A stretch of 64,000 bases of DNA from Methylobacteriaceae bacterium (GTDB lineage: Bacteria; Pseudomonadota; Alphaproteobacteria; Rhizobiales; Beijerinckiaceae): contig JACKJE010000016.1 in the NCBI GenBank assembly GCA_020638135.1, positions 925 to 64,924 on the forward strand. The letters are read 5' to 3'. Below, one piece after another: positions 11,461-35,432 of the stretch. How positions within the stretch are numbered: position 1 is the stretch's first letter; each line of letters starts with the position of its first letter. Below the pieces are notes generated by a model, which searched no databases, was not told where the DNA came from, and saw only the letters and a program-made list of their open reading frames with translations. The position numbers and the translations under genes are program-made.

Positions 11461-11465
11461 ACCAT

Positions 11466-13557: not shown

Positions 13558-13585
13558 CGCTCCCTTGGACCACGTCCCAATTCGC

Positions 13586-13630
13586 TTGACAATCAATTTT
13601 AGGCTTCGATATTTTATATTTCAAATAATA
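13586..13630 (+). promoter_or_regulatory. putative sigma70-like promoter and MarR operator in an AT-rich island
   Basis: TTGACA at 13586-13591, then GATATT/ATATTT 16-17 nt downstream. Palindrome TATTTCAAATA at about 13617-13627. This is the only AT-rich stretch in the 92-bp divergent intergenic region. Confidence 0.35.
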
Positions 13631-13649
13631 AGACCGAGGGGAGCGAACC

Positions 13650-15950: not shown

Positions 15951-15959
15951 CGGGGGCAG

Positions 15960-16748: not shown

Positions 16749-16772
16749 AACGCAGGAAGATCGGAGGACGCC

Positions 16773-18434: not shown

Positions 18435-18442
18435 GAGGTCTC

Positions 18443-18835: not shown

Positions 18836-18861
18836 AGAGGAACAACAGGCGGGATTCGATC

Positions 18862-19761: not shown

Positions 19762-19771
19762 GACAAAAGAA

Positions 19772-19806
19772 AAGCCCCGCCGCAATGCGCGACGGGGCTC
19801 TTTTCA
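19772..19806. terminator. bidirectional Rho-independent terminator between the convergent MenA-like gene and acnB
   Basis: AAAAGCCCCGCCGCAATGCGCGACGGGGCTCTTTTC: a GC stem flanked by an A-run on one side and a T-run on the other. Confidence 0.8.
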
Positions 19807-19823
19807 CAACAGCGAACGTCCGA

Positions 19824-22415
19824 TCAGGCGCCGACCGTCTCCGCCACTTCCACGAATTCCGGAATCTGGTCGAAATTCATGTAGCGATAGACTTCCGCGC
19901 CCTTGCCCGCGAGGCCGCCGACCGCCGCCATATATTCCTCCATCGTCGGGATCCTGCCGAGCAGAGCGCCGACGGCGGCGAGTTCGGCCGACGAGAGATA
20001 GACGCGCGTGTCGATGCCGAGGCGGTTCGGGAAGTTGCGCGTCGAGGTCGAGAGCGCGGTCGAACCCTTGCGGATCTGCGCCTGGTTGCCCATGCACAGC
20101 GAACAGCCCGGCATTTCCATGCGCGCGCCGGACTTGCCGAGGGTCGCGTAATAGCCCTCTTCGGTCAGGATATGCGCGTCCATCTTGGTCGGCGGCGCGA
20201 TCCACAGGCGCGTCGGAATGTCCGACTTGCCGGCCAGAATCTTACCCGCCGCGCGGAAATGGCCGATGTTGGTCATGCACGAGCCGATGAAGACCTCGTC
20301 GACCTTGTCGCCGGCGACGTCGGACAGCGTCTTGATGTCATCGGGATCGTTCGGGCAGGCGAGCAGCGGCTCCTTGATCGCGTTGAGATCGATCTCGAAC
20401 ACCGCCGCATATTCGGCGTCCGCGTCGGGCTGCATAAGATGCGGATCGGCGATCCACGCTTCCATTTTCGCGATGCGGCGCTCGAGCGAACGCTTGTCCT
20501 GGTAGCCCTGCGCGATCATCCACTTCATGAGCACGATGTTCGAGCGCATGTATTCGATGATCGGCTCCTTGTTGAGCCGCACGGTGCAGGCCGCAGCCGA
20601 GCGCTCAGCGGAAGCGTCGGACAGTTCGAACGCCTGCTCCACCTTGAGATTCGGCAGACCCTCGATTTCCAGGATGCGGCCGTTGAAGACGTTCTTCTTG
20701 CCCTTCTTCTCGACCGTGAGATCGCCGGTCTTGAGCGCCGCATGGGGGATGGCATTGACGAGATCGCGCAGGGTCACGCCCGGCTGCATCTCGCCCTTGA
20801 AACGCACGAGAACCGATTCCGGCATGTCGAGCGGCATCACGCCGGTCGCCGCAGCGAAGGCGACGAGCCCCGAGCCCGCCGGGAAGGAAATGCCGATCGG
20901 GAAGCGCGTATGGCTGTCGCCGCCCGTGCCGACCGTATCGGGCATGAGCAGGCGGTTCAGCCAGGAATGGATCACGCCGTCGCCCGGCCGCAACGAAATG
21001 CCGCCGCGGTTGGAGATGAAGGTCGGCAGGTCGCGATGCGTCTGCACGTCCACGAGCTTCGGATAGGCCGCGGTGTGGCAGAAGGACTGCATCACCAGAT
21101 CGGCGGAGAAGCCGAGGCAGGCGAGGTCCTTCAGCTCGTCGCGCGTCATCGGCCCGGTCGTGTCCTGCGAGCCGACCGTCGTCATCTTCGGCTCGCAATA
21201 CGTGCCCGGACGAATGCCTTTGCCCTCGGGCAGACCGCAGGCGCGCCCGACCATCTTCTGCGCGAGCGTGAAGCCCTTGCCCGTGTCCTTGGGCTGCGCG
21301 GGCATGCGGAACAGCGTCGAGGCCGGCAGGCCCAGCGCCTCACGGGCGCGCGTCGTCAGGCCGCGGCCGATGATCAGCGGAATGCGGCCGCCGGCGCGCA
21401 CTTCGTCGAAGATCACGTCCGACTTGACCTTGAACTCTGCGATCACCGCGCCGTTCTTCAGCGCCTTGCCGTCATAGGGCCGCAGTTCGATGACGTCGCC
21501 CATCTCCATCTGCGAAACGTCGAGCTCGATCGGCAGCGCGCCGGCGTCTTCCATCGTGTTGTAAAAGATCGGTGCGATCTTGGAGCCGAGGCACACGCCG
21601 CCGAACTTCTTGTTCGGCACGTAGGGAATGTCCTCGCCGGTGAACCACAGCACCGAATTGGTCGCCGACTTGCGCGAAGACCCAGTGCCGACGACGTCGC
21701 CGACGTAAGCCACCGGATTGCCCTTGGCGATCAGCTTCTCGAGCTGTTTCACCGCGCCGCGCACGCCCGGCTCGTCCGGCTCGATGCCGGGGCGCGGGTT
21801 CTTCAGCATGGCGAGCGCATGCAAGGGAATGTCGGGGCGCGTCGAGGCGTCGGGCGCGGGCGACAGATCGTCGGTGTTGGTCTCGCCGGAGACCTTGAAC
21901 ACGGTGAGCGTCAGGGATTGCGGCACTTCCGGACGCGAGGTGAACCATTCCGCGTCAGCCCAGGACTGCATCACGCCTTTGGCGGTGGCGATGCCCTTGT
22001 CGGCCAGCTCCTTCACGTCGTGGAAATAATCGAACATCAGCAGGGTCTTCTTCAGACCCTCGGCGGCGACCGCGCCGACTTCCGCATCCGCCAGCAGGTC
22101 AATCAGCGGCTTGATGTTGAAGCCGCCGAGCATGGTGGCGAGCAGTTCGGTCGCGAGCTTCCGCGACACCAGCGCGTTCTTCTCCTCGCCCTTGGCGACC
22201 GCGTCGAGGAAGCCGGCCTTCAGTCGCGCGGCGTCGTCCACGCCCGCCGGCACACGATGGGTCAGCAAGTCGACAAGAAACGCCTCCTCGCCGGCCGGCG
22301 GCTGGCGCAGCAGCGCGATCAGTCCCTCGGTCTGCTTGGCGGACAGCGGCAGCGGCGGAATGCCGAGCGCGGCGCGTTCGGCGACATGGGCGCGGTAGGT
22401 TTCGAGCAGCGACAT
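19824..22415 (-). CDS. acnB: aconitate hydratase B (bifunctional aconitase 2 / 2-methylisocitrate dehydratase)
   Basis: [25 protein letters not shown]-terminus. About 863 aa, with Fe-S cluster cysteines in the ...[10 protein letters not shown] and ...[10 protein letters not shown] contexts. Confidence 0.9.
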
Positions 22416-22671: not shown

Positions 22672-23046
22672 TCAAGCGGCGGCTTCGCCGGACGCCATCC
22701 AGCGGCGCGCCGCCTCGGCCTGATCCGCAGGAAAGGCGCGGAATTCGCCCGGCGACATCAGGCCCCACAGCCGCATCGCCCAGTCGATCCAGCCGGGGCC
22801 GCCGACCACAGCCATGCGGCCGATGTCGGCGCGATGCTTCAGCCCGTAGCGGGCGTCGTCCCACACGGCGGCGGGCTCGAGCCGCAGCGGATCGTCGAGC
22901 AGGACGAGCGCGTTGAGCTTGCGATGCTGCGCCAGCACCGCGTCGAGCGCGGGAATCAGCGTGTTCTTGTAATCGGCGTCGGTCAGGACGCCGCTTGCGC
23001 GCACAACAACCGTGTCGCCGGCGCTCTCGGGCAGAATTTCGATCAT
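22672..23046 (-). CDS. SpoIIAA-like (STAS/DUF3478-type) protein
   Basis: MIEILPESAGDTVVVRASGVLTDADYK...L.LL.D pattern. 124 aa. Confidence 0.6.
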   Translation of the reverse strand: MIEILPESAGDTVVVRASGVLTDADYKNTLIPALDAVLAQHRKLNALVLLDDPLRLEPAAVWDDARYGLKHRADIGRMAVVGGPGWIDWAMRLWGLMSPGEFRAFPADQAEAARRWMASGEAAA

Positions 23047-23151
23047 GGCTGCGCTCCAGTCTCCCGCGCTCTTGCGCCCGCGCATTCGCGAGGACAATCG
23101 CATTTCACCATTGGACTGGGGCGCCAGTTTGACGCGGCCCATTCACGCGCG

Positions 23152-24303
23152 TCAGACCAGCCGCGCGCCCTTGCGCAGAACGTCGGGCGCGTCGAACGGC
23201 GAGGCGTCGAAACAGATCAGGTCCCCGCGCTCGCCTGCGGCGATGGCGGTGGACGCGACATTCCACAGCCGTCGCGGCCGCGTGGTCGCGGCTTCGAGCG
23301 CCGCCGCCATCGGCACGCCGGCGTCGACGAAGTGGAAGATTTCGTCGACCAGCGCCGCGCCATGCACGACGCCCGGACTGCCGGCGTCCGAGCCCGCGAC
23401 CAGTTCGACGCCCTTGCGATGCGCGAGCCCGATATGTTCGGCGTGACCGTCGAGGATGCGGCGCAGATTGCCGATCGTGTTGGCGTCCCAACCCGCAAGC
23501 TCCGGCCGCGCCCACTGGAAATGCACCGGCGAGACGGTCGGAACCCAGGCAATGCGTTTGTCCGCCATCACGTCGAGAATGTCAGGCGTCATGAAGAAGC
23601 CGTGCTCGATCGAATCGACGCCGGCCGCGACCGCGACCTTCAGGCCCTCGAGCCCGCTGCAATGCGCGAAAGTCCTTTTGCCATACGCATGCGCCGTCGT
23701 CACGATGGCGCGCAATTCCTCTTCGTTGAATTGCGGCGCGCCCTTCACCTCGCCTGCCGCGAAATCGATGATGCCGGTCAGGATGATCTTGATGTCGTCG
23801 GCTGTCGCCGCCATGTCCGCGACGACAGGCGCGACATCGCCGCCGGCCTCGATGTCGCGCGCCATGAAGCCGCCATAGCGCTTCGGGCGCTTGACGCCGA
23901 GACCTGGCGACCGGACCGCCACCCGGCCGCCGCGCTGTTCCGCACGGATCGCGTCGTTGACGCCGTAGCGGTCGCCGGCGTCGCGCACCAGCGTCACGCC
24001 CGCCGCCGCATTGCGCGCGATATTTTCGCGCGCCACGCGCAGCATCTCGTCCTTTGGCGCGTCGAGATAGGCGTTGCGCTTGTCGAAATCGAGTTCGCCG
24101 CCGTCGAGGAAGAGATGTGCATGCGCTTCGACCAGCCCCGGCATGACGAAAGCCACGCGCTGGTCGAACGGCGCCTCCGTCGCACGGCGATCGATCGCGG
24201 CGATCCGGCCATCCTCGACCGAAATCAGATGCGGCCCATCCTTCGCCGGATGCAGCGCGCATCCGTCGAAATAGCTGTCGGCCAGCAGGCGAAGCGCAGC
24301 CAT
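23152..24303 (-). CDS. amidohydrolase family (metal-dependent hydrolase) protein
   Basis: PGLVEAHAHLFLDG HxH motif, later IEHG and GSDAG motifs. The start lies 2 nt after the upstream gene's stop. Confidence 0.8.
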   Translation of the reverse strand: MAALRLLADSYFDGCALHPAKDGPHLISVEDGRIAAIDRRATEAPFDQRVAFVMPGLVEAHAHLFLDGGELDFDKRNAYLDAPKDEMLRVARENIARNAAAGVTLVRDAGDRYGVNDAIRAEQRGGRVAVRSPGLGVKRPKRYGGFMARDIEAGGDVAPVVADMAATADDIKIILTGIIDFAAGEVKGAPQFNEEELRAIVTTAHAYGKRTFAHCSGLEGLKVAVAAGVDSIEHGFFMTPDILDVMADKRIAWVPTVSPVHFQWARPELAGWDANTIGNLRRILDGHAEHIGLAHRKGVELVAGSDAGSPGVVHGAALVDEIFHFVDAGVPMAAALEAATTRPRRLWNVASTAIAAGERGDLICFDASPFDAPDVLRKGARLV

Positions 24304-24305
24304 CG

Positions 24306-25196
24306 TCAGGCCTTGTAAAACTTGCGTACGGCCCGCAGCGCATTGCTGCCGGTCTGCTCGAGGAAATTGCGATAGGCCTGCAGCACGTAATTGTCATCGG
24401 GCAAGGCGTGATAGCCACGCCACGGCGTGCCGAGCACCGTATCGAAGCCGCGCGGATTGGCGATGGTGAGGAAGGCGCATTCCAGCATGTGCTTGAGTTC
24501 CGAACCATCGGCCGCCTTGGCCGGCATCTGCTGGCCGATGTTCGACAGCCCGCCCATCATGTGCACGCCCTTCAGGTCCGGGTCGGCGCCGATCATGCCG
24601 ATCGCATCGAGCGTCGCGCGGTTGAGGCCGGTCGTGTCGGCGATGATGGCGCTGACCGACATGTCGAGAAAAATATCCGACAGCGGCATGCCGTATTCGT
24701 CGCGCAGCCGCAGCGCGCAACGCCGCGCCGTATCGTAGACTTCCTGCGCGGTCTTGTTGCCCTTCGCCTGCCCGCCCTCGACACGCTCGGAGGCCATGAG
24801 AATGACCTTGAACGGACCATGCGTCCTGTAAAGTTCCATCAGGTCCCAGCGATGCTCGGTGATCGAGTTGACGATCGGATCAGCGCCGCCGGCCTTCGCG
24901 CGATCATAGGCTTCGAGACACACTTTCTGCACCTCGGCGCTCGGGAAATCGAACGACAGCGGGATTGCGACCACCTCCTGGATGGCGCGGATCACCGTCG
25001 CCATGAAGCCAGGGTCTGTCAGCGCGCGCGCGCCAATATTGACGTTGAGATAGCGCGCGCCGGCCTCGGCCTGCTTGACCGCGAGCGCCTGGATGCCGGC
25101 GATGTCCTCGTTGTCGAACAGGGCCTTCGTGCTCTTGAAACCCGGATTGATCCGTTCGCCGATGATCTGGAGCGAAAATCCCTGCGATGCGGTCAC
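24306..25196 (-). CDS. pterin-binding methyltransferase (methyl-corrinoid:tetrahydrofolate methyltransferase, MT-II type)
   Basis: 296 aa from GTG 25196. LQIIGERINPGFKS...YLNVNIG...SFDFPS...NSIT...GGLSNIG is a dihydropteroate-synthase-like TIM barrel, as in AcsE, the MetH pterin domain and CmuB. GTGA overlap with the upstream stop. Confidence 0.8.
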   Translation of the reverse strand: MTASQGFSLQIIGERINPGFKSTKALFDNEDIAGIQALAVKQAEAGARYLNVNIGARALTDPGFMATVIRAIQEVVAIPLSFDFPSAEVQKVCLEAYDRAKAGGADPIVNSITEHRWDLMELYRTHGPFKVILMASERVEGGQAKGNKTAQEVYDTARRCALRLRDEYGMPLSDIFLDMSVSAIIADTTGLNRATLDAIGMIGADPDLKGVHMMGGLSNIGQQMPAKAADGSELKHMLECAFLTIANPRGFDTVLGTPWRGYHALPDDNYVLQAYRNFLEQTGSNALRAVRKFYKA

Positions 25197-26998
25197 GATG
25201 CGCGTTCCTCTCTGTGGCCGGAAAAGCCGATGTTCTTCATGAAGCGTTTCTGGAACTGCGGATTGGTCGACAATTCCACATAGGCGCAACGCGCCGCGAT
25301 CTCGCGCGCAAGCTTGCGTTCGGCGGTGGACGCGAGCATGCGCGCCACGCCGACGCCGGCCGCATTGCCGACCTGCGCGAATTTTTCGCGAGCAAGACGC
25401 GGCAGCAGCCCGATCTCCATCGCGCTGTCGAGATCGATATAGGCGCCGAAGGCGCCGGCGAGGATGAAGCGATCGATGCGCTGCTCGCTGAGCCCCATGC
25501 GCTCCAGCAGCAGGTCGACGCCGGTGCGCACGGCGGATTTCGCGAGCTGCACGGCGCGCACGTCGTTCTGCACGACCTGTACGCCATCGGCGAGCCGGAT
25601 CACGCGCCGGCTGCCATCGACGATGACGTCCGCGTAGCCCTCGCCGATCCGCCCGCCCTTGTCGACCAGCCCGAGCCGCAGGCCGGCGGCGATGGCGTCG
25701 AGAACGCCGGAGCCGCATACGCCGACCGGCGCGGCATTGGCGATCGTGGCGATGCGCAGGCGCCCGTCCTCGATTCTCACGCGTTCGATCGCGCCGTCGG
25801 CTGCGCGCATGCCGCAGGATATGTGCCCGCCTTCGAGCGCCGGCCCAGAGGGACAGGAGGCGGAGACGATCTGCCCATCGTGCATCAAAGAAATTTCGGT
25901 GTTGGTGCCGATGTCCATGACGAGCGATACGCCGCCCTGCTCCCAGCGCGCCCGCGTCGCCAGCAGCGCCGCGACATGATCCGAACCGACGAAGCCGCCG
26001 ACATTGCCGGCGACATGCACGCGCGCGCCCACCGCGAAATCGAGACCGAGATCGCGCGCGAAAAGGTCCATCGCATCATGCGCGGCCGCGACGAAGGGCG
26101 CACGGCCGAGCTGGCGCACCGGCAGGCTGAGCAGCAGGTGCTGCATGGCGGTATTGCCACAGATCGTCACGTCGCGAATGTCGTGCGCGCGCAGGCCAAC
26201 GGCGCGCGCGAGATCATGGCCGAGCGCATTGATCGCCGTACGCGCCGCCGCCTGCAACTCGTCTTGGTGTCGTCGCCCGCCGACCGCATGGTTGATGCGG
26301 CTGACGAGATCGGCGCCCCAGGCGACCTGTGGATTCTCGATGCCGAGGCTCGCCAGCCGCGCGCCCGTTTCGAGGTCGAGCAGGAAGCCGACGACATTGG
26401 TCGTGCCGAGATCGATGGCAAGCCCGACCGCGCGCCGCCCCGGCGCGCCGATGCCGACGATCCGTCCGTCGCGCGAATAGACGCGCGCCGCCCAATCGTT
26501 GTCGCGCAAGACTTGCGGCAGCGCGCGCGCCGCCTCGATGTCGATCGTCTCGATGCGCGCGCCCATCGCGCGCCGCACGCGCGAAAAATCGTCGGCGTGA
26601 TCGACGAGCGTCGCGGGCGGGACCGTCACATCTTCGAACGAGACAGCCGGCGCCGGCGCGATGGCCGCCTCGTCGCGCGCATGCACATCGGCGCGCGTCA
26701 CCTGCGCCAGCGAACGCGGCGCAATCTCGATCGCGCAATCGCCGGTCGGACGCACGCGGCATGCATGCGCCCATTTCCGCCCGCCTTCGATCTCCGCGCC
26801 TTCGTCGTCGGTCAGTTTGCCGTCATGCGCGCGCACCATGCACGAGCCGCAGGCGCCGCGGCCGCCGCAGGCGCCGACGATGCGCACGCCCGAGCGGCGC
26901 GCCGCGTGAAAGATCGTCTCGTCCGCCGCGCAATCGATCTCGCGGTCGAGATGCGCGAAGCGCACGCGATAGGTCGCAACGGGAGAATGCGCGTCCAT
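25193..26998 (-). CDS. RACE-type corrinoid reductive activase (N-terminal 2Fe-2S ferredoxin plus ASKHA/DUF4445 ATPase)
   Basis: GACGGRGACGSCMV ferredoxin cysteines. GLAIDLGTTNVVG and VMDIGTNTE ASKHA phosphate motifs. About 600 aa. Confidence 0.85.
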   Translation of the reverse strand: MDAHSPVATYRVRFAHLDREIDCAADETIFHAARRSGVRIVGACGGRGACGSCMVRAHDGKLTDDEGAEIEGGRKWAHACRVRPTGDCAIEIAPRSLAQVTRADVHARDEAAIAPAPAVSFEDVTVPPATLVDHADDFSRVRRAMGARIETIDIEAARALPQVLRDNDWAARVYSRDGRIVGIGAPGRRAVGLAIDLGTTNVVGFLLDLETGARLASLGIENPQVAWGADLVSRINHAVGGRRHQDELQAAARTAINALGHDLARAVGLRAHDIRDVTICGNTAMQHLLLSLPVRQLGRAPFVAAAHDAMDLFARDLGLDFAVGARVHVAGNVGGFVGSDHVAALLATRARWEQGGVSLVMDIGTNTEISLMHDGQIVSASCPSGPALEGGHISCGMRAADGAIERVRIEDGRLRIATIANAAPVGVCGSGVLDAIAAGLRLGLVDKGGRIGEGYADVIVDGSRRVIRLADGVQVVQNDVRAVQLAKSAVRTGVDLLLERMGLSEQRIDRFILAGAFGAYIDLDSAMEIGLLPRLAREKFAQVGNAAGVGVARMLASTAERKLAREIAARCAYVELSTNPQFQKRFMKNIGFSGHREERAS

Positions 26999-27003
26999 GC
27001 CGA

Positions 27004-27690
27004 TTACGCCGCCGCCGCGCGAAGAGCGACCGCGCAGGTCTTGCGCGACCGGCAATCATCGCAGCGCGACCACAATGCGATGGGCAGATCGCGGCCGACG
27101 CCGAACATGACCGACGCCGATTTCGCTGGCTCCAGCGCGAGCGACGAGGTGACCGCAACGCCAATCCTGTCGGCGCCGGCCAGCCGCAACACGGCCGGCT
27201 GCGCATCGAGCACGAGCCCGGGATCGCCGGGCCGCAATTCGCCGGCCATGGTCAGATCGCGCTTCGTCACATCGGCGAGGATGCGGTCCTGCAGGCGGCG
27301 CGAGGCCTCAATCAGCATCTGGTTGCCGAGCGTGTCGAGCGCCAGCGCCAGCGACATTTTTCGTTCGGCAAACAGCGCCCGCACTTTTTCGACCAGCGCC
27401 GGACCGATCGTGCAGACGCCGAAGGCGAGCGCGGTCAGCTCGCCGGTTTCAGGCAACATGCGCGGCGCATGAAAGGCCTCGCCGCCGGCGCGCAAAATGT
27501 CTGCCGCCGGCGCGTCGAGCGCGACGATGGCATAGGTCATATGCGCGCGCCCTAGCCCTTGCGCACGTGCGATCGCGATCGCCTCGGCGCGGAAGCGACG
27601 CCGCGCGTCCGTCAGCCCCACGGGCTCGACGGCCGCGATCGCCTTCAGCGCATCGAAGGCGCGCGGCGCTGCGGGCGCGTCAGCCGGCAT
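27004..27690 (-). CDS. stand-alone homologue of the methionine synthase (MetH) reactivation/AdoMet-binding domain
   Basis: 228 aa. The C-terminal LRPGDPG...IGVAVTSSLALEPAKSASVMFGVG parallels MetH RPAPGYPA...IG..LTES.AM.P.ASVSG. The start overlaps the upstream gene by 11 nt. Confidence 0.65.
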   Translation of the reverse strand: MPADAPAAPRAFDALKAIAAVEPVGLTDARRRFRAEAIAIARAQGLGRAHMTYAIVALDAPAADILRAGGEAFHAPRMLPETGELTALAFGVCTIGPALVEKVRALFAERKMSLALALDTLGNQMLIEASRRLQDRILADVTKRDLTMAGELRPGDPGLVLDAQPAVLRLAGADRIGVAVTSSLALEPAKSASVMFGVGRDLPIALWSRCDDCRSRKTCAVALRAAAA

Positions 27691-28945
27691 ATTTGCGCGC
27701 CGCGCGGAACATCGCCCGCACGTTCTCGACCGGCGTCTCGTCCGGCAGGCCAAAGGCCGCATCGAGAATGATGCGCCCGCCCTTGTTCCAGACATTGTCG
27801 ACAATGTATTTCACGGCCGCATCGACATCCTCGGGCTTGCCGGTCGTCAGGATCGACGGCGAGACATTGCCGCGCAGCGCGACCGTATCGCCCAGCACCT
27901 CGCGCGCCTTCACGATATCGGCGCGCTCGAACCAGTAGATCGCCTTGCCCTTCGGAATGTCCTGGATGATCTCCAGCCGCTTGGTGCAATCGGATTCCCA
28001 CATCGGCATCGGGATCAGACCCTCGGCGATGAGATCGAGCATCATCTGCCGGAACGACGGCCACCAATAGGTCTTGAACTGGTCCTGCGACATGAAGGCG
28101 TCGGGCGCCCAGTGCAGCGGGATGAAGACGATCGGATTGCCGGCGGCCTTCGCGGCGGGCACGGCCTGTCTCACCAGCAGCCGCCGCATCTTGTCGCAGG
28201 CTTCGAGCAACTTGTCGCCGCGCCTGCGCATGTCGGTGAGAATGCCGCGCGCGCCGCGGAAATAATCGCCGAGCACATCGAACGGCGCGCCCGACGTCGC
28301 GATACTGCCCATGGGATAGCCGAGCTCCGCCATGCGCGCGATGAAGCGGGCGTTGCGGTCGGCGAGCTGCTGGCTCGCCTCGCCCGCTTTCTGCACGCGC
28401 GCCCAGGATTCCTGCAACGCAGGGCTGAGGAAGCCGCGCACATTGGCGAAGAGTCGGAAATAAAATCCGCCCGCAATGTTCGGGAATTCCGAAAAGCCCT
28501 CGAACGCGCCCATCACGCGCGGCAGATAGACGCGCAGATAATAGCCGGTCGGATCGAACAGGAAGTCGTCATACTCTTCCGGCGGCATGTATTCGCGGTC
28601 GAGATATTGATAGGGCTGATTGTCGCCCACGCCATGTCCCGGCCATTGCAGCTGCTTGTAGCCGGTCGCGTCCAGCGTCGGCCCCATGGCCGTCTGCAGC
28701 ACGAGCGGGCTCACCGTATCGGGATCGAGTTCGAGTACGGCGCGCTCGGCGATAGCTGCCGTGCCCTCGAAATCGTACATCAACTGCTTGTAGGAAACGC
28801 CGCCGTATTTCGCGAGCCAGAACGTTCCAAACAGCGTCGCCGGCATGCGGTCGGGCTGGCGCAGTTCGACGCAATCCATGATCCTTTGCCAACGCGCGTC
28901 ATAGGCGGCCTTGGCGTCCGCGGGGGCTTCGACGGCGGCGCTCAT
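27680..28945 (-). CDS. uroporphyrinogen-decarboxylase (URO-D) family methyltransferase, substrate:corrinoid MT-I type
   Basis: 421 aa. C-terminal LRGNVSPSILTTGKPEDVDAAVKYIVDN...GGRIILDAAFGLPDETPVENVRAMFRAARKY is a URO-D/MtaA-family signature. No H-x-C...C zinc motif is visible. ATGA overlap with the corrinoid protein stop. Confidence 0.75.
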   Translation of the reverse strand: MSAAVEAPADAKAAYDARWQRIMDCVELRQPDRMPATLFGTFWLAKYGGVSYKQLMYDFEGTAAIAERAVLELDPDTVSPLVLQTAMGPTLDATGYKQLQWPGHGVGDNQPYQYLDREYMPPEEYDDFLFDPTGYYLRVYLPRVMGAFEGFSEFPNIAGGFYFRLFANVRGFLSPALQESWARVQKAGEASQQLADRNARFIARMAELGYPMGSIATSGAPFDVLGDYFRGARGILTDMRRRGDKLLEACDKMRRLLVRQAVPAAKAAGNPIVFIPLHWAPDAFMSQDQFKTYWWPSFRQMMLDLIAEGLIPMPMWESDCTKRLEIIQDIPKGKAIYWFERADIVKAREVLGDTVALRGNVSPSILTTGKPEDVDAAVKYIVDNVWNKGGRIILDAAFGLPDETPVENVRAMFRAARKYAG

Positions 28946-29604
28946 GCGTTCACTCCCATCCAGCCCTTGCACAGCGAAACCGCTTCGACCGCATTGACGC
29001 CGAAGGCGTCGGCGCCGGTATAGGCGCGCACCGTCTCGTCGATCTGCCCGCCGCCGATCATGATCTTCACATCGTTGCGCAGGCCCGCATTGTCGATCGT
29101 GGCGATCGTCTCCTTCATCGAGTCGAAGGCGAGCGTGAGAAAGCCCGAGAGGCCGACGACATCGGGCTTGAACGCCTCGATCTCCGACACGAAGGTCGCG
29201 GCCGGCACGTCGATGCCGATGTCCTTCACCTCGAAGCCGTTGATGTCGAGCATGAAGCTGACGATGTTCTTGCCGATGTCGTGCAGGTCGCCGTGCACCG
29301 TGCCGATCAGCACCTTGCCGAGCCTGCGCGGCTCCTCGCCCGGCGCGCTCTTGATCAGCGGCTTGGCGATGGCGCCGATCGTGTCGAGCATCTCGCCGGC
29401 CAGCACCAGTTCGGGCAGAAAATATTCGCCGTCCTCGAACTTCTTGCCGACGATATCCATCGCGGCGCGACAGAGTTCGAGCACGCGCATCGGATCGGCG
29501 CCCTCTTCGAGCAGCATCTTCTTGGCGAGATCGATGCCCTCGTCCTCTTCCATCTCGGCCAGATGGCCGACGAGGCGGGCTTCCTGTTCCGTCATTTCGC
29601 TCAT
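28942..29604 (-). CDS. cobalamin-binding corrinoid protein (B12-binding cap plus Rossmann domain)
   Basis: GTVHGDLHDIGKNIV contains the DxHxxG lower-ligand motif. LSGFLT and IMIGGG motifs follow. 220 aa. Confidence 0.9.
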   Translation of the reverse strand: MSEMTEQEARLVGHLAEMEEDEGIDLAKKMLLEEGADPMRVLELCRAAMDIVGKKFEDGEYFLPELVLAGEMLDTIGAIAKPLIKSAPGEEPRRLGKVLIGTVHGDLHDIGKNIVSFMLDINGFEVKDIGIDVPAATFVSEIEAFKPDVVGLSGFLTLAFDSMKETIATIDNAGLRNDVKIMIGGGQIDETVRAYTGADAFGVNAVEAVSLCKGWMGVNA

Positions 29605-29646
29605 CAAAACCTCCCAACACAATTCTTGCGGGTCATTGCGCGCGCC

Positions 29647-31026
29647 TCACGCGCGCACGCCCGATTGAACGATCGCCTCCGCCAGTGTCGCCTCGTTGCG
29701 GTGTCCCATCAGATGGACGCCGGCGACGCCTTCGATGTCGCGCAGCGCCTGGATCGTCTCCACGAGTATGGCGAGCCCTTCCGCCTTCTGGTCGTCGGCA
29801 TTGGCGATGCGGACGAGAACGGAATCCGGGATATGTACGCCCGGAACATGATGCGCCATCCAGCGCAGCGCCTTGACGCTGCTCAAAGTGCCGACGCCGA
29901 CGATCATGCGCGCGCGGTCGTGCAGGCCACGCGCGCGAACGCCGTCCATGAAGCGGCGGAACAGGTCGAGATCGAAACAGAATTGCGTCTGGATGAATTG
30001 CGCGCCCGCGTCGATCTTCATTTCGAGATTGTCGATCCGGTCCTCGTAGGGCGGCGCGAAAGGATTGGCGGTGGCGCCGATGAACAGGTCCGGCGGCGTC
30101 TCCAGCTTGCGCCCCGAAGCGAATTCGCCTTTGTCGCGCATGTCGCGGGCAATGCGCAGCAGGTTGATCGCGTCGAGATCGAACACGGGTTTGGCCTGCG
30201 GATGGTCGCCCTGGCTCACATCGTCGCCGGTCAGGCACAGGATGTTGCGGACTCCGAGCGCGGCCGCGCCGAGTATGTCGCCCTGCACGGCGATGCGATT
30301 GCGGTCGCGGCAGGCGATCTGGCAGACCGGCGTGTGACCGTGCGCGGCGAGAATGGCCGCGGCCGCCGCGCTCGACATGTGGCAATTGCCGCCGGCGCCG
30401 TCGGTGATGTTCACGGCGTCGACGAGCCCCGCGAATTTTTCCGCGCGCGCGAGCAGCGCGGAGGGATCGGCGGAATCCGGCGGCGCGATCTCGACCGTCG
30501 TCACGAAGCGCCCGGAGCGGCACGCCGCCTCGAACGCATGGACCGGACGTTCGCGCGGCGGCGGCGCGGGCCCCTGCTCGGGCGCGGGCGCGCCTTCGAT
30601 CACCCTGATCCAGGTCGACCGGCCCTGCCGCGAAAAATCGATCGGCGGCAGGGACGGCGGCGCAGCGTCGCGCGAATTGATCGCCCGCATGCCCTCGCGC
30701 GCCTCGAGCCAGACGCAGCGCGTCGCCGGGTCGACCTCGCAGCCGCCATCGGCGCGCACGCCGCCGCACGGCCCGTTGCGCATCGCCTTGCCGCAATTGG
30801 TCGGACAGGCCATGCCGGTCTTGCGCAGAACGCAGGCGCCGCACATGCGGCAGTCGAACATCAGGTTTTTCGCGCCGCGTTCGATCGGCGTCAGCGCGCG
30901 TTCGGCGCGGTCGCTGCCGACAAATGTCGCCAGCGGCCTCAGAAATGGCGCAACATGGGCGAAGGCTTCGTAGAGCCTGTCGAGTCCGGCGGCGTGCCTT
31001 ACGCTCCACTGCCGGGCGGCTTTCAT
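29647..31026 (-). CDS. methylenetetrahydrofolate reductase with fused N-terminal Cys-rich MetV-like (MTHFR_C) domain
   Basis: N-terminus FDCRMCGACVLRKTGMACPTNCGKAMRNGPCGG...GGCEV...RCVW. C-terminal MetF TIM barrel (VTTVEIAPP...VNITDGAGG...NILCLTGDD...FIQTQFCFD). Confidence 0.8.
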   Translation of the reverse strand: MKAARQWSVRHAAGLDRLYEAFAHVAPFLRPLATFVGSDRAERALTPIERGAKNLMFDCRMCGACVLRKTGMACPTNCGKAMRNGPCGGVRADGGCEVDPATRCVWLEAREGMRAINSRDAAPPSLPPIDFSRQGRSTWIRVIEGAPAPEQGPAPPPRERPVHAFEAACRSGRFVTTVEIAPPDSADPSALLARAEKFAGLVDAVNITDGAGGNCHMSSAAAAAILAAHGHTPVCQIACRDRNRIAVQGDILGAAALGVRNILCLTGDDVSQGDHPQAKPVFDLDAINLLRIARDMRDKGEFASGRKLETPPDLFIGATANPFAPPYEDRIDNLEMKIDAGAQFIQTQFCFDLDLFRRFMDGVRARGLHDRARMIVGVGTLSSVKALRWMAHHVPGVHIPDSVLVRIANADDQKAEGLAILVETIQALRDIEGVAGVHLMGHRNEATLAEAIVQSGVRA

Positions 31027-31565
31027 GTCTCGCCGACTTTCGTGAGTTGCGCGGCCCGCGCGTGGATTTTTTCGAGCAGGCGGATGGCGGCGCGGCGCTC
31101 CTGATCTGTGAGGTCGGCCAGCAGGAATTCCTCGCGCTCGCGCGCGACGTCGACGATCTGGTCGTGCAGTTCGAGCCCCTTTTTCGTCAGCGCGATGAAT
31201 TGCCGGCGCATGTTGTTGTCCTGGAACCGCGTCTCGACCAGCCCCCGCTCCTGCATGAAGGCGACGCTGCGGCTGATGACCGCGCGATCGAAACCGATGA
31301 CCTCCGATATGCGGCCGGCGGGAATCCACGGCTCGACCGCCAGCAGCGCCATGATCCGCCAGTCGGTGACGCCGACGCCGAACCGCTTGCGATAGATGAC
31401 CGAGGCGCTGCTCGACACCTTGTTGGCGATCCAGGTGAGATAGGCGACGGCGTAATTCTCGAGATCGAGCGCTTTCGGCGAACTGCGGACGTCGCCGCCA
31501 ACGGGCGACTTCCGCCGCGTCGGCGCTTCGCTCCTGACCTTGTTCGCCGCACGTGTCGCCCGCAT
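31023..31565 (-). CDS. MarR family transcriptional regulator embedded in the operon
   Basis: Winged-helix pattern GVGVTDWRIMALLAVEPWIPAGRISEVIGFDRAVISRSVAFMQERGLVE. ATGA overlap with the downstream MTHFR gene. Confidence 0.85.
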   Translation of the reverse strand: MRATRAANKVRSEAPTRRKSPVGGDVRSSPKALDLENYAVAYLTWIANKVSSSASVIYRKRFGVGVTDWRIMALLAVEPWIPAGRISEVIGFDRAVISRSVAFMQERGLVETRFQDNNMRRQFIALTKKGLELHDQIVDVAREREEFLLADLTDQERRAAIRLLEKIHARAAQLTKVGET

Positions 31566-31576
31566 GCCCGTCTCCC

Positions 31577-32800
31577 CTACTGGCGCGTCGCCCGCACCGG
31601 CAGCGAGGAAAATGCGCGCAGCACATTATTGTACTGCCGCTTCGGCTCGCCGGCGAGTTCGATCGTCGCGGCCTTGCGCGCGAAGGCCGCAAACACTGCC
31701 TCGCCCTCGAGCCGCGCGATCGGCTGGCCGACGCAGCCGTGAATGCCCGTGCCGAACCCCATATGGCCGACGACCTTGCGCTCGATGTCGAATTCGTCGG
31801 CGCGTTCCCAGCGACGGGGATCGCGATTGGCCGATTGCATGAAGGCGCAGATCTTTTCATCCGCACCGACCTTCACGCCGCCGATCTCGACGTCTTTCGT
31901 CGTCGTGCGGAAGAAGGCCTGCGCCGGACCTTCGTAGCGCAGGCTCTCCTCGAAGGCGTTGCGCGCCAGTTCGGGCTTTTCGCGCAATTTCTTCCACTGG
32001 GCCGGATGCGTGGCGAGGCACCACAGCAGATTGCCGAAGGCGTTGACGGTCGTGTCCACGCCCGCTGACAGGAAGGAGCGCACCAGCATGGCCGCTTCGT
32101 CCTCCTTCAGCTCTCCGCTGTCGACGGCGGCGTAGATCATCGCGCCGAGCCCGTCCTTGGTCAGCTCTGCCCGCGCGCAATTGGCCATGATCCAGCCGCG
32201 CACGGCATCGGCGTTGGCCATGGCGGCCTGCGTGAATTCGTTCTGCGGCCCGAAGGAATTGAACACCATCGCGCCATAGGGCAGCAGATTCTCGCGCCCC
32301 TTTTCCGGCAGGCCGAGCGCGTCCGGAAAAACCTTGGTCGGATAATATTCGGCGAAGTCGGCAATGCCATCGAACTCGCCCATGTCGAGCATGCGATCGA
32401 CCAGAAGTTCGGCCTCGCGCTCGAACTGCTCACGCAATTTGCGCACGATGCCCGGCGTCATCGTGCGCGCGAGCACCGTGCGCGTGCGCGTATGCAGCGG
32501 CGGATCGGCCTCGAGCACGATGCTCGGCGGCCGCCACGGCTTTTCCTTGTTGAAATTGGCGAGCCCGACGCCGGCGGCGGACGAAAACGTCTGCCACTCG
32601 CTGAGCACGCGCTGCACATCGTCGTGCCGCGCAACGACGTAGCATTCGTATTGCGGCGACCAGAGCGCTGGCCCTGCTTCGCGCATCGCCTCGAAATGCG
32701 GATAGGGATCGTCCATGAATTCGCGCGTGAACGGATCAGCGTGCAGGATCGGCGCGCCAGCGCGCGCTTCGGCAGCGGCTTTCATGATCGCCTCCCTCAC
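31577..32800 (-). CDS. cytochrome P450, CYP199A-like (4-methoxybenzoate O-demethylase type)
   Basis: Heme loop FGTGIHGCVG. FNKEKPWRPPSIVLEADPPLHTRTR, EGRENLLPY, LVRSFLSAGVDTTVN and FFRTTT match my memory of CYP199A2/A4. GTG 32800 overlaps the binding-protein stop (GTGA). An ATG at 32785 is an alternative start. Confidence 0.85.
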   Translation of the reverse strand: MREAIMKAAAEARAGAPILHADPFTREFMDDPYPHFEAMREAGPALWSPQYECYVVARHDDVQRVLSEWQTFSSAAGVGLANFNKEKPWRPPSIVLEADPPLHTRTRTVLARTMTPGIVRKLREQFEREAELLVDRMLDMGEFDGIADFAEYYPTKVFPDALGLPEKGRENLLPYGAMVFNSFGPQNEFTQAAMANADAVRGWIMANCARAELTKDGLGAMIYAAVDSGELKEDEAAMLVRSFLSAGVDTTVNAFGNLLWCLATHPAQWKKLREKPELARNAFEESLRYEGPAQAFFRTTTKDVEIGGVKVGADEKICAFMQSANRDPRRWERADEFDIERKVVGHMGFGTGIHGCVGQPIARLEGEAVFAAFARKAATIELAGEPKRQYNNVLRAFSSLPVRATRQ

Positions 32801-34008
32801 TTGACGAGCGGGCAGTCGCTTTCCGACAACGGCCGGAAGGCCTTGTCGCCGGGAATCGTCTTGATCAGCTTGTAGTAATCATAGGCATATTTGCTCTCCT
32901 CAGGCGACTTCACCTGGAAGAGATGCATGGCGTGCACCGCGCGGCCGTCGGCGCGCACGCTCATGTCGCCGAACAGCGGATCGTGGAAGGGCGCCTTCTT
33001 CATCTGCGGCACGACGTCCTTCGCATTGTCGCTGCCGGCGGCCGCGACCGCCTTGAGATAGGCGAGCGTGGCGGAATAGACGCCGGCCTGGTTCGCGCTC
33101 GGCATCTTGCCGCCCATGCGCGCCGCAAACCTCTTCGCGAAGGCCCGCGTCTCGTCGTTCATGTCCCAGTAGAAGGCTTCCGTCAGCAGCAGTCCCTGCG
33201 CGGTCTTCAGGCCCATGGCGTGCACGTCGTTGACGAACATCAGGAAAGCGACGAGCGACTGGCCCTGCGAGCGCATGTTGAATTCGGCCGCCTGCTTCAT
33301 CGAATTCGCCGTATCGGGCCCGGCATTGGCGAGCGCGACGACCTTGGCCTTGGAAGCCTGCGCCTGCAGCAGGAACGACGAAAAGTCGGACGCGCCGAGC
33401 GGATGCTTGGCAGAGCCCAAAACCTTGCCGCCCTTCGACTGGATGTAGGCTGTCGCGTCCGCCTCGATCGAATTGCCGAGCGCGTAATTGACCGTGACGA
33501 AATACCAGCTGTCGCCGCCGCGCTCGAGCATGGCGCCCGATGTCGCATGCGAGATCGCCCAGGCGTCGGTCACCCATTGCACGACGTTGGGCGAACAGGC
33601 CTTGCCGGTCAGAGCCGAGGTCGCCGTCGCCGAGGCCAGCATGGTCATCGGCGTATCGCGCACGATCGTGTTGACCGCCAGCGCGACGCCCGAATTCGGC
33701 AGGTCGACGATGGCGTCGACCTTCTCGACATCGAGCCAGCGGCGAACGACGGTCGCGCCGACATCCGGCTTGTTCTGGTGGTCGCCGGAGACGATCTCGA
33801 CCTTGATGTTCTTGCCGCCGCCCGCGAAATCCTCGGCCGCCATTTTCGCGGCCTCGATCGAGCCCGGACCATTGTAGTCCTGGAACACGCCGGACGTGTC
33901 GTTGAGAACGCCGACGCGCACGACGCCGTCGGAAATTTCTGCATGCGCGAGGCCCGCGCAGGCGACGAGCGCAAGGACCGACACACCGGCCGCGTGAAAG
34001 CGCGTCAT
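32797..34008 (-). CDS. LivK-type (Leu/Ile/Val-binding family) periplasmic substrate-binding protein
   Basis: Signal peptide MTRFHAAGVSVLALVACAGLAHA. VRVGVLNDTSG...G..VE.V..D.Q.KPD pattern. 403 aa. Confidence 0.85.
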   Translation of the reverse strand: MTRFHAAGVSVLALVACAGLAHAEISDGVVRVGVLNDTSGVFQDYNGPGSIEAAKMAAEDFAGGGKNIKVEIVSGDHQNKPDVGATVVRRWLDVEKVDAIVDLPNSGVALAVNTIVRDTPMTMLASATATSALTGKACSPNVVQWVTDAWAISHATSGAMLERGGDSWYFVTVNYALGNSIEADATAYIQSKGGKVLGSAKHPLGASDFSSFLLQAQASKAKVVALANAGPDTANSMKQAAEFNMRSQGQSLVAFLMFVNDVHAMGLKTAQGLLLTEAFYWDMNDETRAFAKRFAARMGGKMPSANQAGVYSATLAYLKAVAAAGSDNAKDVVPQMKKAPFHDPLFGDMSVRADGRAVHAMHLFQVKSPEESKYAYDYYKLIKTIPGDKAFRPLSESDCPLVK

Positions 34009-34107
34009 TGGTTTCCCTCCCGTTCGGAGCTTTTTGCGCTCCTGATTTCGGTCATCCGGACGCGGCTCTGCCGCTCGCGCTGTCGCGCCCGTCCGGTCGC
34101 CGGCAAT

Positions 34108-34137
34108 AATGTTGCGTCAGCAATATTGCGTTGTCAA
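34108..34137. promoter_or_regulatory. AT-rich palindromic operator/promoter region between the divergent binding-protein genes
   Basis: AATGTTGC-GTCA-GCAATATT has 7 of 8 matching arms. It overlaps ATTGCGTTGTCAAT. On the minus strand, TTGACA (34132-34137) is a -35-like box for the operon. Confidence 0.4.
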
Positions 34138-34220
34138 TCTTTTATCCGGACGGCGCCCCTGTCGCCCGGGCGGCCGGTGAACTAACCTTCCGGTCAAGCA
34201 AGACAAAACGGAGGAAACAC

Positions 34221-35432
34221 ATGAGACGGATCATCCTTGCGTCCGCGGGCGCGTTCCTGCTGGCGGGCGGCGGCCTGGCGCTTGCGGCGCAATACGATCA
34301 GGGCGCGAGCGACAAGGAGATCGTCATCGGCAATATCGTCCCCTACAGCGGCCCGGCCTCCGTCTATTCCGTCTACGCCAAGGTGTTCGAGGGCTATTTC
34401 GCGCGCCTCAACGAGCATGGCGGCGTCAACGGCCGCAAGATCAGGATGATCTCCTACGACGACGCCTATTCGCCGCCGAAGACGGTCGAGCAGGCCCGCC
34501 GGCTCGTGGAAAGCGACAATGTGCTGTTCCTGTTCGGCGTCGTCGGTACGCCGACCAATGTCGCCATCCTCAAATACATGAATGCGAAGAAGACGCCGCA
34601 ATTGTTCGTCGGCACGGGCTCTTCGGCGCTGGCCGACCCCGCGCATTTTCCGTGGTCGATCGGCTTCCAGCCCAACTATCGGGCCGAAGGCCGCCTCTAC
34701 GCCAGCTACGTGCTGAGCCACAAGCCCGATGCGAAGATCGGCGTGCTCTATCAGGACGACGATTTCGGCAAGGACCTGCTGCAGGGCCTGACCGACGGTC
34801 TCGGCGACAAGGCCGCCGGCATGATCGTCGCGAAAGTCTCCTACGACACGCGCACGCCGACGGTCGACTCGCAGATCGTCCAGATCAAGGCGGCCGGCGC
34901 GGACGTCATGATGGATTTCACGACGCCGAAATTTTCGACGCAGGCCATTCGCAAGATCGCCGAACTGAAATGGCAGCCGATGCAATTCGTCGCCTCCGTC
35001 GGATCGCACGTCGGCAGCGTGCTCAAGCCCGCGGGCTTCGACAATTCGAAGGGCGTCATCACCGGCCACTGGGTGAAGGACCCGAACGATCCCGCCATGA
35101 CCGACGACGCCGGCGTCAAGGAATGGCGCGAATTCATGACGCGCTACTATCCTGGCGGCGACCAGACCAACAACATCAACGTCATCGCCTACGTGCTCGC
35201 CCAGACGCTGGAGCAAGTGCTGAAGAAGTGCGGCGACAATCTCACGCACGACAACATCATGCGCACGGCGACCACGCTCGGCGTCTTCACGCCGCCGCTG
35301 CTCATTCCCGGCGTGCGCATCGAGCCCTCGCCCAAGGACTACCTCGTCGTGCGCGACCTCAGGCTCGACCAGTTCGATGGCGAGAAATACACGCCGATCG
35401 GCCCCGCCATGGAGATGAAACTGTCGCGCTGA
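34221..35432 (+). CDS. LivK-type periplasmic substrate-binding protein (second copy, divergent)
   Basis: GGAGGA Shine-Dalgarno sequence and signal peptide MRRIILASAGAFLLAGGGLALA. IVIGNIVPYSGPAS...INGRKI..ISYDD.YSPPKT pattern. Confidence 0.85.
   Translation: MRRIILASAGAFLLAGGGLALAAQYDQGASDKEIVIGNIVPYSGPASVYSVYAKVFEGYFARLNEHGGVNGRKIRMISYDDAYSPPKTVEQARRLVESDNVLFLFGVVGTPTNVAILKYMNAKKTPQLFVGTGSSALADPAHFPWSIGFQPNYRAEGRLYASYVLSHKPDAKIGVLYQDDDFGKDLLQGLTDGLGDKAAGMIVAKVSYDTRTPTVDSQIVQIKAAGADVMMDFTTPKFSTQAIRKIAELKWQPMQFVASVGSHVGSVLKPAGFDNSKGVITGHWVKDPNDPAMTDDAGVKEWREFMTRYYPGGDQTNNINVIAYVLAQTLEQVLKKCGDNLTHDNIMRTATTLGVFTPPLLIPGVRIEPSPKDYLVVRDLRLDQFDGEKYTPIGPAMEMKLSR

Follow-up and report, generated by a model that had tools for sequence, protein, structure and literature searches.

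We analyzed a 64,000-nucleotide (nt) stretch of contig JACKJE010000016.1 from a Methylobacteriaceae bacterium (the window), in which eleven genes of the minus strand, here designated g1 to g11, run from position 34008 down to position 22672. We found that the real unit within this block is a portable cassette of seven genes (g4 to g10, positions 23152 to 31026), which code for a fused MetV-MetF methylene-tetrahydrofolate (methylene-THF) reductase (MTHFR), a corrinoid protein, a methyltransferase I (MT-I), a protein with the fold of the MetH reactivation domain (g7), a RACo-type activase, a methyltransferase II (MT-II), and an amidohydrolase. The canonical parts MT-I, corrinoid protein, MT-II, and RACo are thereby all encoded, together with an MTHFR of the type that oxidizes one-carbon (C1) units. 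With moderate confidence, we propose that the cassette demethylates a methoxylated aromatic acid independently of O2 and delivers the methyl group to folate. An earlier reading of the same DNA, referred to below as the original prediction, had put forward a THF-linked demethylation of this kind for the whole eleven-gene block, and as a whole it is partly supported by our results.

A seven-gene cassette is conserved in Proteobacteria

One genome per species was scanned, which returned 224 MT-I matches; 79 loci were fetched, and 54 of them had enough flanking sequence to be counted. Because the calling of open reading frames (ORFs) is unreliable in this high-GC DNA, core genes were counted by tblastn with the window proteins. 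The families of neighboring genes were counted by clustering of ORFs over the 79 loci. The genes for the corrinoid protein, MT-I, g7, RACo, and MT-II were found together and in this order at 45 of the 54 loci, a recurrence that argues against a chance run of ORFs. Among these 45 complete cassettes, MetVF joined the five-gene core in 36, the amidohydrolase in 31, and both in 28. As for the remaining genes of the block, a MarR homolog adjoined the cassette at 19 of the 54 loci, a homolog of the cytochrome P450 g2 was present at 5 and a homolog of the LivK-type protein g1 at 2 (L006 and L009 only), and no homolog of the STAS-like gene g11 was seen beside the cassette in related loci. The original prediction had counted the P450, the LivK-type protein, and the STAS-like protein as members of the system. 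Our results place the first two, and partly the MarR regulator, in a lineage-specific front end upstream of the cassette and indicate that g11 probably lies outside the system.

Comparison of gene neighborhoods showed that the core cassette is conserved across Alpha-, Beta-, and Gammaproteobacteria. Carriers with 86 to 94% identity include Rhodoblastus and Beijerinckiaceae metagenome-assembled genomes (MAGs), and those with 61 to 67% identity include members of Ramlibacter, Ideonella, Sulfuritalea, Sterolibacterium, Steroidobacteraceae, Rhodoplanes, Xanthobacteraceae, Telmatospirillum, Azospirillum, Paramagnetospirillum caucaseum, and Aromatoleum anaerobium. Carriers are often MAGs (Sulfuritalea, Sterolibacterium, and Steroidobacteraceae) or isolates (A. 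anaerobium and Paramagnetospirillum), and these groups include denitrifiers. Cultured carriers include Azospirillum sp. TSO22-1 and ST 5-10, A. anaerobium LuFRes1, and P. caucaseum SO-1.

In the window, the block is flanked by the aconitase B gene (acnB) on one side and by a second LivK gene, leuA, and ilvB on the other; in a relative with 91% identity (L083), it lies between nuo genes and HU-lon-clpX. None of the window flanking genes (acnB, leuA, and the second binding protein gene) was found beside the block, even in relatives with 90 to 94% identity, and therefore the block occupies different chromosomal contexts. The GC content, 0.62 to 0.71 in the window with no compositional break at the block, gave no sign of recent transfer.

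Some genomes contain the full cassette twice or have as many as three MT-I loci (L048, L055, and L075), and one LacPavin MAG has MT-I loci on three contigs (L012, L014, and L046). This multiplicity suggests an expanding paralog family. Several genomes also carry extra "orphan" MT-I paralogs, each with binding protein, regulator, and oxygenase genes of its own nearby. In acetogens, substrate-specific MT-Is share one corrinoid set, and the pattern of the orphan paralogs resembles that multi-MT-I arrangement.

The MT-I belongs to a family without characterized members

Domain assignments were made by Pfam and NCBIfam profile searches of the window proteins. The MT-I (g6; positions 27680 to 28945, minus strand, 421 amino acids [aa]) matched the URO-D family with an E value of 2.3e-20 and lacks the HxC...C zinc motif, since H278 is followed by W-A; both points had been anticipated in the original prediction. 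Among all solved structures, the best relative of g6 was CdmB (9rui), with an E value of 5.6e-40 for the single sequence and 2.2e-45 for a profile, whereas UroD structures matched at only ~1e-3 and MtaA was not detected by sequence. CdmB is the only strong solved relative of the g6 family. The AlphaFold2 (AF2) model of g6 adopts the URO-D/MtaA fold, and its Foldseek matches were UroD and MtaA only, in a library that predates the release of CdmB and does not contain 9rui; the structures of MtaA and MetE are remote fold matches of the model. CdmB is a zinc-free chloromethane:corrinoid methyltransferase from Acetobacterium dehalogenans, which its authors placed among zinc-free MT-Is together with the O-demethylases MtvB, OdmB, VdmB, and MtoB, the last being its nearest characterized relative at 31% identity (PMC13222342). 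In the stretches close to the active site, g6 reads HWAPD...WESDCTKR versus VWY..N...FQGEHDH in CdmB. Judging from these sequence comparisons, g6 appears to group with the zinc-free MT-Is related to CdmB and to the O-demethylases, and not with MtaA or CmuA. In an exhaustive search of 1.84 billion representatives, the g6 family formed 249 clusters (50% identity) at E < 1e-30 over all taxa, Desulfobacterota included, and none of at least 1184 homologs had a functional name.

Relatives with 33 to 34% identity to g6 were found in Desulfomonile tiedjei and in Desulfomonilaceae and Syntrophobacteraceae MAGs. The gene order in D. tiedjei is a fused MT-II-corrinoid protein, a major facilitator superfamily (MFS) transporter, MT-I, a g7 homolog, and RACo. 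Since the MT-I/g7/RACo triad is present in this strict anaerobe, it predates the proteobacterial cassette. The aerobic context assumed in the original prediction is accordingly unproven, the more so as close relatives carry the label Rhodoblastus and many carriers fall into groups that include denitrifiers. D. tiedjei itself is reported to O-demethylate methoxybenzoates, in work attributed to DeWeerd et al. from 1988. At the D. tiedjei locus (L087, CP003360, positions 6986 to 14012), MT-II and the corrinoid protein form one 533-aa protein (Pterin_bind, B12-binding_2, and B12-binding), the MFS transporter takes the place of an ATP-binding cassette (ABC) importer, and sigma-54 activators flank the cluster.

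Other cassette proteins include a predicted methyl carrier, folate enzymes, and an activase

The corrinoid protein (g5; 28942 to 29604) contains B12-binding_2 and B12-binding domains and a DLHDIG stretch that conforms to the DxHxxG motif. It matched the methyltransferase cognate corrinoid protein model TIGR02370 (E value, 7e-42) and also TIGR02082 (metH), and its median identity across distant loci was 77%. Its start is more likely ATG 29604, which gives 220 aa as in independent gene calls, than TTG 29622. The MT-II (g9; 24306 to 25196) scored 36.2 bits against Pterin_bind, for which the cutoff is 25.5, and matched the methyl-THF:corrinoid methyltransferase domain PRK07535 with an E value of 6e-29; its solved relatives are MeTr/AcsE (E value, 1e-12), the folate domains of MetH, and 4o0q from Desulfitobacterium hafniense (E value, 6e-7). 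The RACo/RACE-type activase (g8; 25193 to 26998) combines an N-terminal 2Fe-2S domain (Fer2) with the three domains RACo_linker, Raco_middle, and RACo_C_ter (ASKHA; E value for the last, 4.8e-73), matches an AcsV-type NCBIfam model (E value, 4e-103), and is 36% identical to the RACo neighbor in D. tiedjei. In the MTHFR (g4; 29647 to 31026), a MetV-like Cys-rich part (PF12225, DUF5981; residues 42 to 131; E value, 1.8e-22) and a MetF part (PF02219, MTHFR; residues 166 to 452; E value, 2.5e-38) are fused into one protein.

The amidohydrolase (g10; 23152 to 24303; Amidohydro_1 E value, 8e-22) is of the Xaa-Pro dipeptidase/Arg carboxypeptidase/ochratoxinase type, and its structure matches include ADH-type amide hydrolases, ochratoxinase, and Cc2672. 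The ligands of a binuclear metal site (HxH, Lys, His, His, and Asp) are present. One may speculate that g10 frees the aromatic acid from an amide conjugate or acts on formyl-folate.

No Pfam or NCBIfam model, PF02965 included, matched g7 (27004 to 27690) at E <= 0.01, and a profile of its homologs gave a marginal match in the PDB to TM0269 (1j6r), a MetH activation-domain protein of Thermotoga (E value, 0.007). The AF2 model of g7 (predicted local distance difference test [pLDDT] score, 90.3) was more informative: the top 19 PDB matches in Foldseek were all MetH reactivation domains, with a probability of 1.00 and template modeling (TM) scores of 0.57 to 0.75, and the best of them was again 1j6r (E value, 7.7e-9). 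As these best structure matches were all of one kind, the original description of g7 as a MetH activation homolog is right at the level of the fold; every other family call of the original prediction agreed with Pfam or NCBIfam. The invariant RPGDPGL of g7 aligns with ISPGYGDL of TM0269, and the Tyr position is occupied by Asp, or by Thr in the D. tiedjei homolog. A C-terminal WSRCDxCx5C motif was invariant in 34 of 34 aligned homologs; this tail, modeled with a pLDDT of ~60, may be a metal, Fe-S, or docking site. The D. tiedjei homolog (240 aa, 24% identity; E value, 1e-14) adjoins MT-I and RACo, and in the BLASTP alignment it keeps WS and the second Cys, has Lys for the first Cys, and stops before the third. 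We considered whether g7 could be an adaptation to oxygen and rejected this idea, because the strict anaerobe D. tiedjei carries a homolog in the same position.

Aryl O-demethylase oxygenases and solute importers adjoin the cassette

The P450 encoded upstream of the cassette (g2; 31577 to 32800) matched CYP199A2 (2fr7) and CYP199A4 with E values of 6.3e-140 and 4.9e-138, the next P450 family following at 1e-55. Its identity to these enzymes is ~52%, and the HMMER alignment shows conservation of all four residues that bind the carboxylate (R92, S95, R243, and S244). Thus, the CYP199A-like P450 of the original prediction is a genuine CYP199A, predicted from its sequence to be an O2-dependent O-demethylase of the para-methoxybenzoate type. 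CYP199-like P450s accompany the cassette at 5 loci, including those of Telmatospirillum (60% identity) and Ideonella (52% identity). At 13 loci, a Rieske oxygenase adjoins the cassette; among solved proteins, it is closest to the dicamba O-demethylase DdmC (E value, 1.8e-47), a member of the VanA family of O-demethylase oxygenases, and the N-demethylases NdmA and NdmB are also among its structure matches. A VanB-type reductase is found in addition at 6 loci. In Sulfuritalea (L073), for example, a single strand carries LysR, vanA-like, and vanB-like genes followed by MetVF, the corrinoid protein, and the rest of the cassette.

In different lineages, the same cassette has thus been combined with two unrelated O2-dependent aryl O-demethylases, CYP199A and the VanA-type Rieske enzyme. 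Of all our arguments for methoxylated aromatic acids as its substrates, we consider this the strongest; the combination also suggests either oxic/anoxic redundancy or complementary regiospecificity. Transport genes are consistent with such a substrate: the commonest neighboring binding protein (16 loci) matched the 3tx6/4f8j/3sg0/3uk0 group with E values of 1e-96 to 1e-105, a group that contains CouP-type phenylpropanoid/aromatic acid binders of Rhodopseudomonas palustris. Liv-type ABC importers, commonly complete ones, and MarR, LysR, or GntR regulators are frequent neighbors of the cassette. The demethylation hypothesis of the original prediction thus gains support from comparative context.

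A different arrangement was seen in an Ideonella sp. MAG (L042, positions 5645 to 21210), where LysR, a VanA-like Rieske protein, the corrinoid protein, two tandem MT-Is, g7, RACo, a Liv-type ABC transporter, and a CYP199-like P450 occur without MetVF, MT-II, or amidohydrolase.

In the window, the first gene of the operon codes for a LivK-type periplasmic solute-binding protein (g1; 32797 to 34008; 403 aa with a signal peptide; Peripla_BP_6 E value, 1.5e-101). The "aromatic acid type" ascribed to it by the original prediction could not be upheld, because its best solved relatives, 3i09 and 3n0w, are uncharacterized Burkholderia proteins. A second LivK-type binding protein gene (34131 to 35432, plus strand; Peripla_BP_6 E value, 4e-52) diverges from the operon at a distance of 122 nt; we saw no genes for a LivHMGF permease or ATPase beside it.

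Organization of the window operon

All eleven ORFs were present on the minus strand at the positions given by the original prediction, without internal stops. In addition to the genes described above, they include the MarR-family regulator (g3; 31023 to 31565), which showed weak MarR_2 and helix-turn-helix matches in Pfam and MarR-type matches in NCBIfam, and a SpoIIAA-like/STAS protein (g11; 22672 to 23142; PF11964 E value, 1e-24) located 9 nt downstream of g10. Seven of the eight gene junctions that had been proposed follow from the ORF coordinates (31566 to 31576, 31023 to 31026, 28942 to 28945, 27680 to 27690, 26999 to 27003, 25193 to 25196, and 24304 to 24305) and match independent gene calls on near-identical contigs. 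At 31023 to 31026, an ATGA joins the stop of g3 to the start of g4; g6 and g7 overlap by 11 nt, the GTG start of g9 overlaps the stop of g8, and 2 nt separate g9 from g10. The eighth junction, read as a GTGA overlap of g1 and g2 at 32797 to 32800, is likely an 11-nt gap, because the start of the P450 is more likely ATG 32785: GAGGGAAG, a good Shine-Dalgarno sequence, lies seven nt 5' of this codon, and a g2 homolog has been called at 402 aa.

Scans of the block for promoter and terminator consensus sequences gave results at the level of shuffled sequence only, which is compatible with a single transcript but no proof of one. Upstream of g1, in the stretch between the two divergent genes, an inverted repeat spans 34103 to 34129, with 12-nt arms GCAATAATGTTG and CAGCAATATTGC. 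Its candidacy as a MarR operator was unsupported, as conservation of the repeat does not extend to the close relatives L009 and L083.

Elsewhere in the window, a separate MarR-headed cluster (13066 to 18835) contains genes for a short-chain dehydrogenase/reductase, an AMP-binding coenzyme A (CoA) ligase, and a RidA protein, as well as for a 766-aa fusion of a flavin adenine dinucleotide-dependent monooxygenase part (FAD_binding_3) with an Old Yellow Enzyme part (Oxidored_FMN). The fusion resembles the 2-aminobenzoyl-CoA monooxygenase/reductase of the aerobic hybrid pathway of anthranilate degradation. A 465-aa ORF (5499 to 6896, minus strand) with a coding-like codon bias and no Pfam match adjoins genes for a family III CoA-transferase, an epoxide hydrolase, and a thiolase.

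Proposed function and alternative explanations

In the mechanism that we propose, MT-I (g6) would transfer the methyl group of a methoxylated aromatic acid to Co(I) of the corrinoid protein (g5), and MT-II (g9) would pass it on to THF. The MetV-MetF protein (g4) would then oxidize methyl-THF to methylene-THF, which enters C1 metabolism. Whenever the cobalt is accidentally oxidized to Co(II), RACo (g8) would return it to Co(I) with ATP and an electron donor, and g7 probably assists this reactivation. The MarR regulator, the CYP199A P450, and the LivK-type protein are additions upstream of the cassette in this lineage, and since the P450 was added there, the operon would pair an O2-dependent with an O2-independent demethylase, the two acting on related substrates. 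The paired demethylases may serve under oxic and anoxic conditions, respectively, or act on different positions of the ring. A hypothetical case of the latter would be the division of labor on veratrate suggested in the original prediction, with the para-methyl group left to the P450 and the meta-methyl group to the corrinoid system.

Several observations weigh against this proposal. No member of the g6 family has been characterized, their names being "uroporphyrinogen decarboxylase family" or "hypothetical," and the zinc-free MT-I sequences with which g6 was compared were CdmB-like ones. With 24 to 25% identity over ~420 columns to two CdmB-like proteins taken from the supplement of PMC13222342, g6 falls below the 40% identity to CdmB by which close homologs are delimited there (Supplementary Data 2), and CdmB itself acts specifically on haloalkanes, with no activity toward methoxy-aromatics (PMC13222342). 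The association with oxygenases and importers is circumstantial, the operon contains no ferredoxin partner gene for the P450, and the binding protein g1 of the window appears by sequence to fall outside the group that binds aromatic acids. Finally, the classical scheme of O-demethylases includes no step for the amidohydrolase, even though it is conserved.

This last point is central to one alternative, which we regard as unlikely: the cassette could serve another imported methylated compound that needs amide hydrolysis, such as an N-aroyl or N-acyl amino acid conjugate or an N- or S-methylated amino acid derivative, with g10 catalyzing a core step and the oxygenases acting on the same substrate. 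The presence of g10 in 31 of 45 cassettes, 2 nt after MT-II in the window, agrees with such a role, as do its solved relatives, which hydrolyze amides of the N-acyl amino acid type (ochratoxinase, ADH-type enzymes, Cc2672, and Xaa-Pro dipeptidase); LivK-type transporters, moreover, classically carry amino acids and amides (NCBIfam matches), and the VanA family of Rieske enzymes includes the N-demethylases NdmA and NdmB. However, g10 is missing from about a third of the otherwise complete cassettes, the carboxylate-binding residues of CYP199A fit para-substituted benzoates, and MT-Is of the MttB, MtmB, or MtbB type are the ones that act on N-methyl donors. The characterized MT-Is of the g6 clade act on O-methyl or halomethyl groups (PMC13222342, PMC8630106). 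A halomethyl substrate would make the cassette a system for the dehalogenation of chloromethane or bromomethane, in which g6 would be CdmB-like and MT-II and MetVF would feed the folate pool. Such a system would be the proteobacterial equivalent of CdmBCA and offer another route than Cmu. We judge this improbable, and methyl halides stay a rival because no other solved protein comes nearly as close to g6 as CdmB; both proteins also lack the zinc motif. Chloromethane degraders without cmu genes exist. The MTHFR beside the methyltransferases further recalls metF of the cmu clusters (PMC3621897). Nevertheless, the distance of g6 from the CdmB-like proteins speaks against a halide substrate as well, and since the nearest characterized relative of CdmB is the O-demethylase MtoB, relatedness to CdmB does not predict one. 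Furthermore, a gas needs no binding-protein-dependent ABC importer, whereas such importers flank most cassettes, and the recurrent neighbors are aryl O-demethylase oxygenases and CouP-like binders.

Least probable, and in our view very unlikely, is a biosynthetic flow in the reverse direction, in which MetVF would produce methyl-THF, MT-II would load the corrinoid protein, and MT-I would methylate homocysteine or another thiol, in the manner of a split methionine synthase. The cassette does contain counterparts of all MetH modules but the homocysteine domain (g9 for folate, g5 for B12, and g7 for reactivation) along with an MTHFR, URO-D-family enzymes of the MtaA type methylate thiols (NCBIfam matches), and a split bidirectional system is known in Ruegeria (PMC12478193). 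Yet g6 lacks the HxC...C zinc site that is used for thiol activation and has MtaA and MetE as remote fold matches only, and the catabolic-type regulators, the importer and O-demethylase neighbors, and the several MT-I paralogs per genome are unlike a housekeeping synthase. The occurrence of carriers among Sterolibacterium and Steroidobacteraceae also led us to look for the cassette among the emtABCD genes of estrogen methylation, a link that we rejected because EmtA is MtmB-like and not of the URO-D family (PMC7448270).

The O2-independent demethylation of methoxylated aromatic acids would matter because the methoxyl groups of lignin-derived aromatics form a large C1 pool. Proteobacteria are known to attack them with oxygenases (VanAB and P450s) and with the corrinoid-independent LigM and DesA. 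Nitrate-dependent anaerobic O-demethylation by Pseudomonas sp. PN-1 was reportedly described by Taylor in 1983, and to our knowledge, no enzyme has ever been assigned to it. The cassette is a concrete candidate for such nitrate-dependent activity in proteobacteria. O-demethylases that work without O2 are known from acetogens, Desulfitobacterium, and a few archaea (PMC8630106, PMC13222342). More tentatively, we suggest that the cassette might represent a widespread, unrecognized mode of B12-dependent, O2-free methoxyl removal in aerobic and facultatively anaerobic Proteobacteria, in which the carbon is kept as methyl-THF, repair has two parts (RACo and g7 with its Cys motif), and the pathway has been wired independently to CYP199A- or VanAB-type oxygenases for dual oxic/anoxic demethylation. 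In that case, it would provide the enzymes that have been missing to explain how denitrifiers and phototrophs turn over methoxyl groups anaerobically, beyond acetogens, sulfate reducers, and methanogens. The cultured carriers make experiments feasible. Biocatalytic methyl shuttling would gain new parts from the cassette, and RACo-type activases a new partner that resembles MetH reactivation domains.

Comparison with known systems

The three-component O-demethylases of anaerobes comprise Moorella MtvABC, Acetobacterium OdmABCD and Vdm, Desulfitobacterium Dhaf_4610-4612 with its activating enzyme, and archaeal MtoABCD, and the cassette shares with them a zinc-free URO-D-type MT-I, a DxHxxG corrinoid protein, a THF-dependent MT-II, and a 2Fe-2S/ASKHA activase (PMC8630106). 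Nearby transporter and regulator genes and several MT-I paralogs per genome are further points of likeness. In contrast to these systems, which are hosted by acetogens, Desulfitobacterium, and methanogens, the cassette occurs in Proteobacteria, many of them oxygen respiring. Its MT-I forms a separate family with ~25% identity to the only solved member of the clade, its MT-II is distant from Desulfitobacterium 4o0q, and it adds a fused MetV-MetF, a MetH-reactivation-fold protein, and usually an amidohydrolase, besides being repeatedly joined to O2-dependent O-demethylases.

CdmBCA (9rui) follows the same logic, from a zinc-free MT-I through a corrinoid protein and MT-II to methyl-THF with a separate activating enzyme (PMC13222342), whereas the solute importers and aryl O-demethylase oxygenases that flank the cassette would be superfluous for a gas. 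The Cmu system (CmuA, CmuB, MetF2, FolD, and PurU) likewise performs corrinoid- and THF-dependent methyl transfer in oxygen-respiring Alphaproteobacteria with a linked MTHFR, and CmuA is there a fusion of MT-I and corrinoid domains (PMC3621897). The cassette does not fit the Cmu pattern: its MT-I and corrinoid protein are separate, and g6 scored 32.8 bits against TIGR01463, for which the cutoff is 235.4. Also unlike Cmu, the cassette has an MTHFR of the MetV-MetF type, a RACo, and a MetH-reactivation-fold protein.

The MT-I of Ruegeria MtgBCD is, judging by NCBIfam family names, a glycine-betaine-specific MttB-type enzyme and not a URO-D protein. MtgBCD (glycine-betaine methyltransferase/methionine synthase; PMC12478193) is, like the cassette, a split corrinoid system and operates in aerobic marine Alphaproteobacteria, although it doubles as methionine synthase and differs in substrate and gene set. 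Because of this precedent, an anaerobe-style system in the present setting is less surprising, and the original view that the block resembles no described system needs to be qualified to this extent; it stands insofar as we found no account of the proteobacterial cassette in the open-access literature. The R. palustris 4-methoxybenzoate O-demethylases CYP199A2 and CYP199A4 (2fr7 and 4dnz) share with g2 about half of their residues and the four carboxylate-binding positions, whereas g2 has no adjoining ferredoxin gene and shares its operon with a corrinoid demethylation cassette. Compared with all of these systems, we regard as new the distinct MT-I family across Proteobacteria, its fixed association with a fused MetVF, a Cys-motif MetH-reactivation-fold protein, and an amidohydrolase, and the repeated joining of the cassette with oxygenase demethylases.

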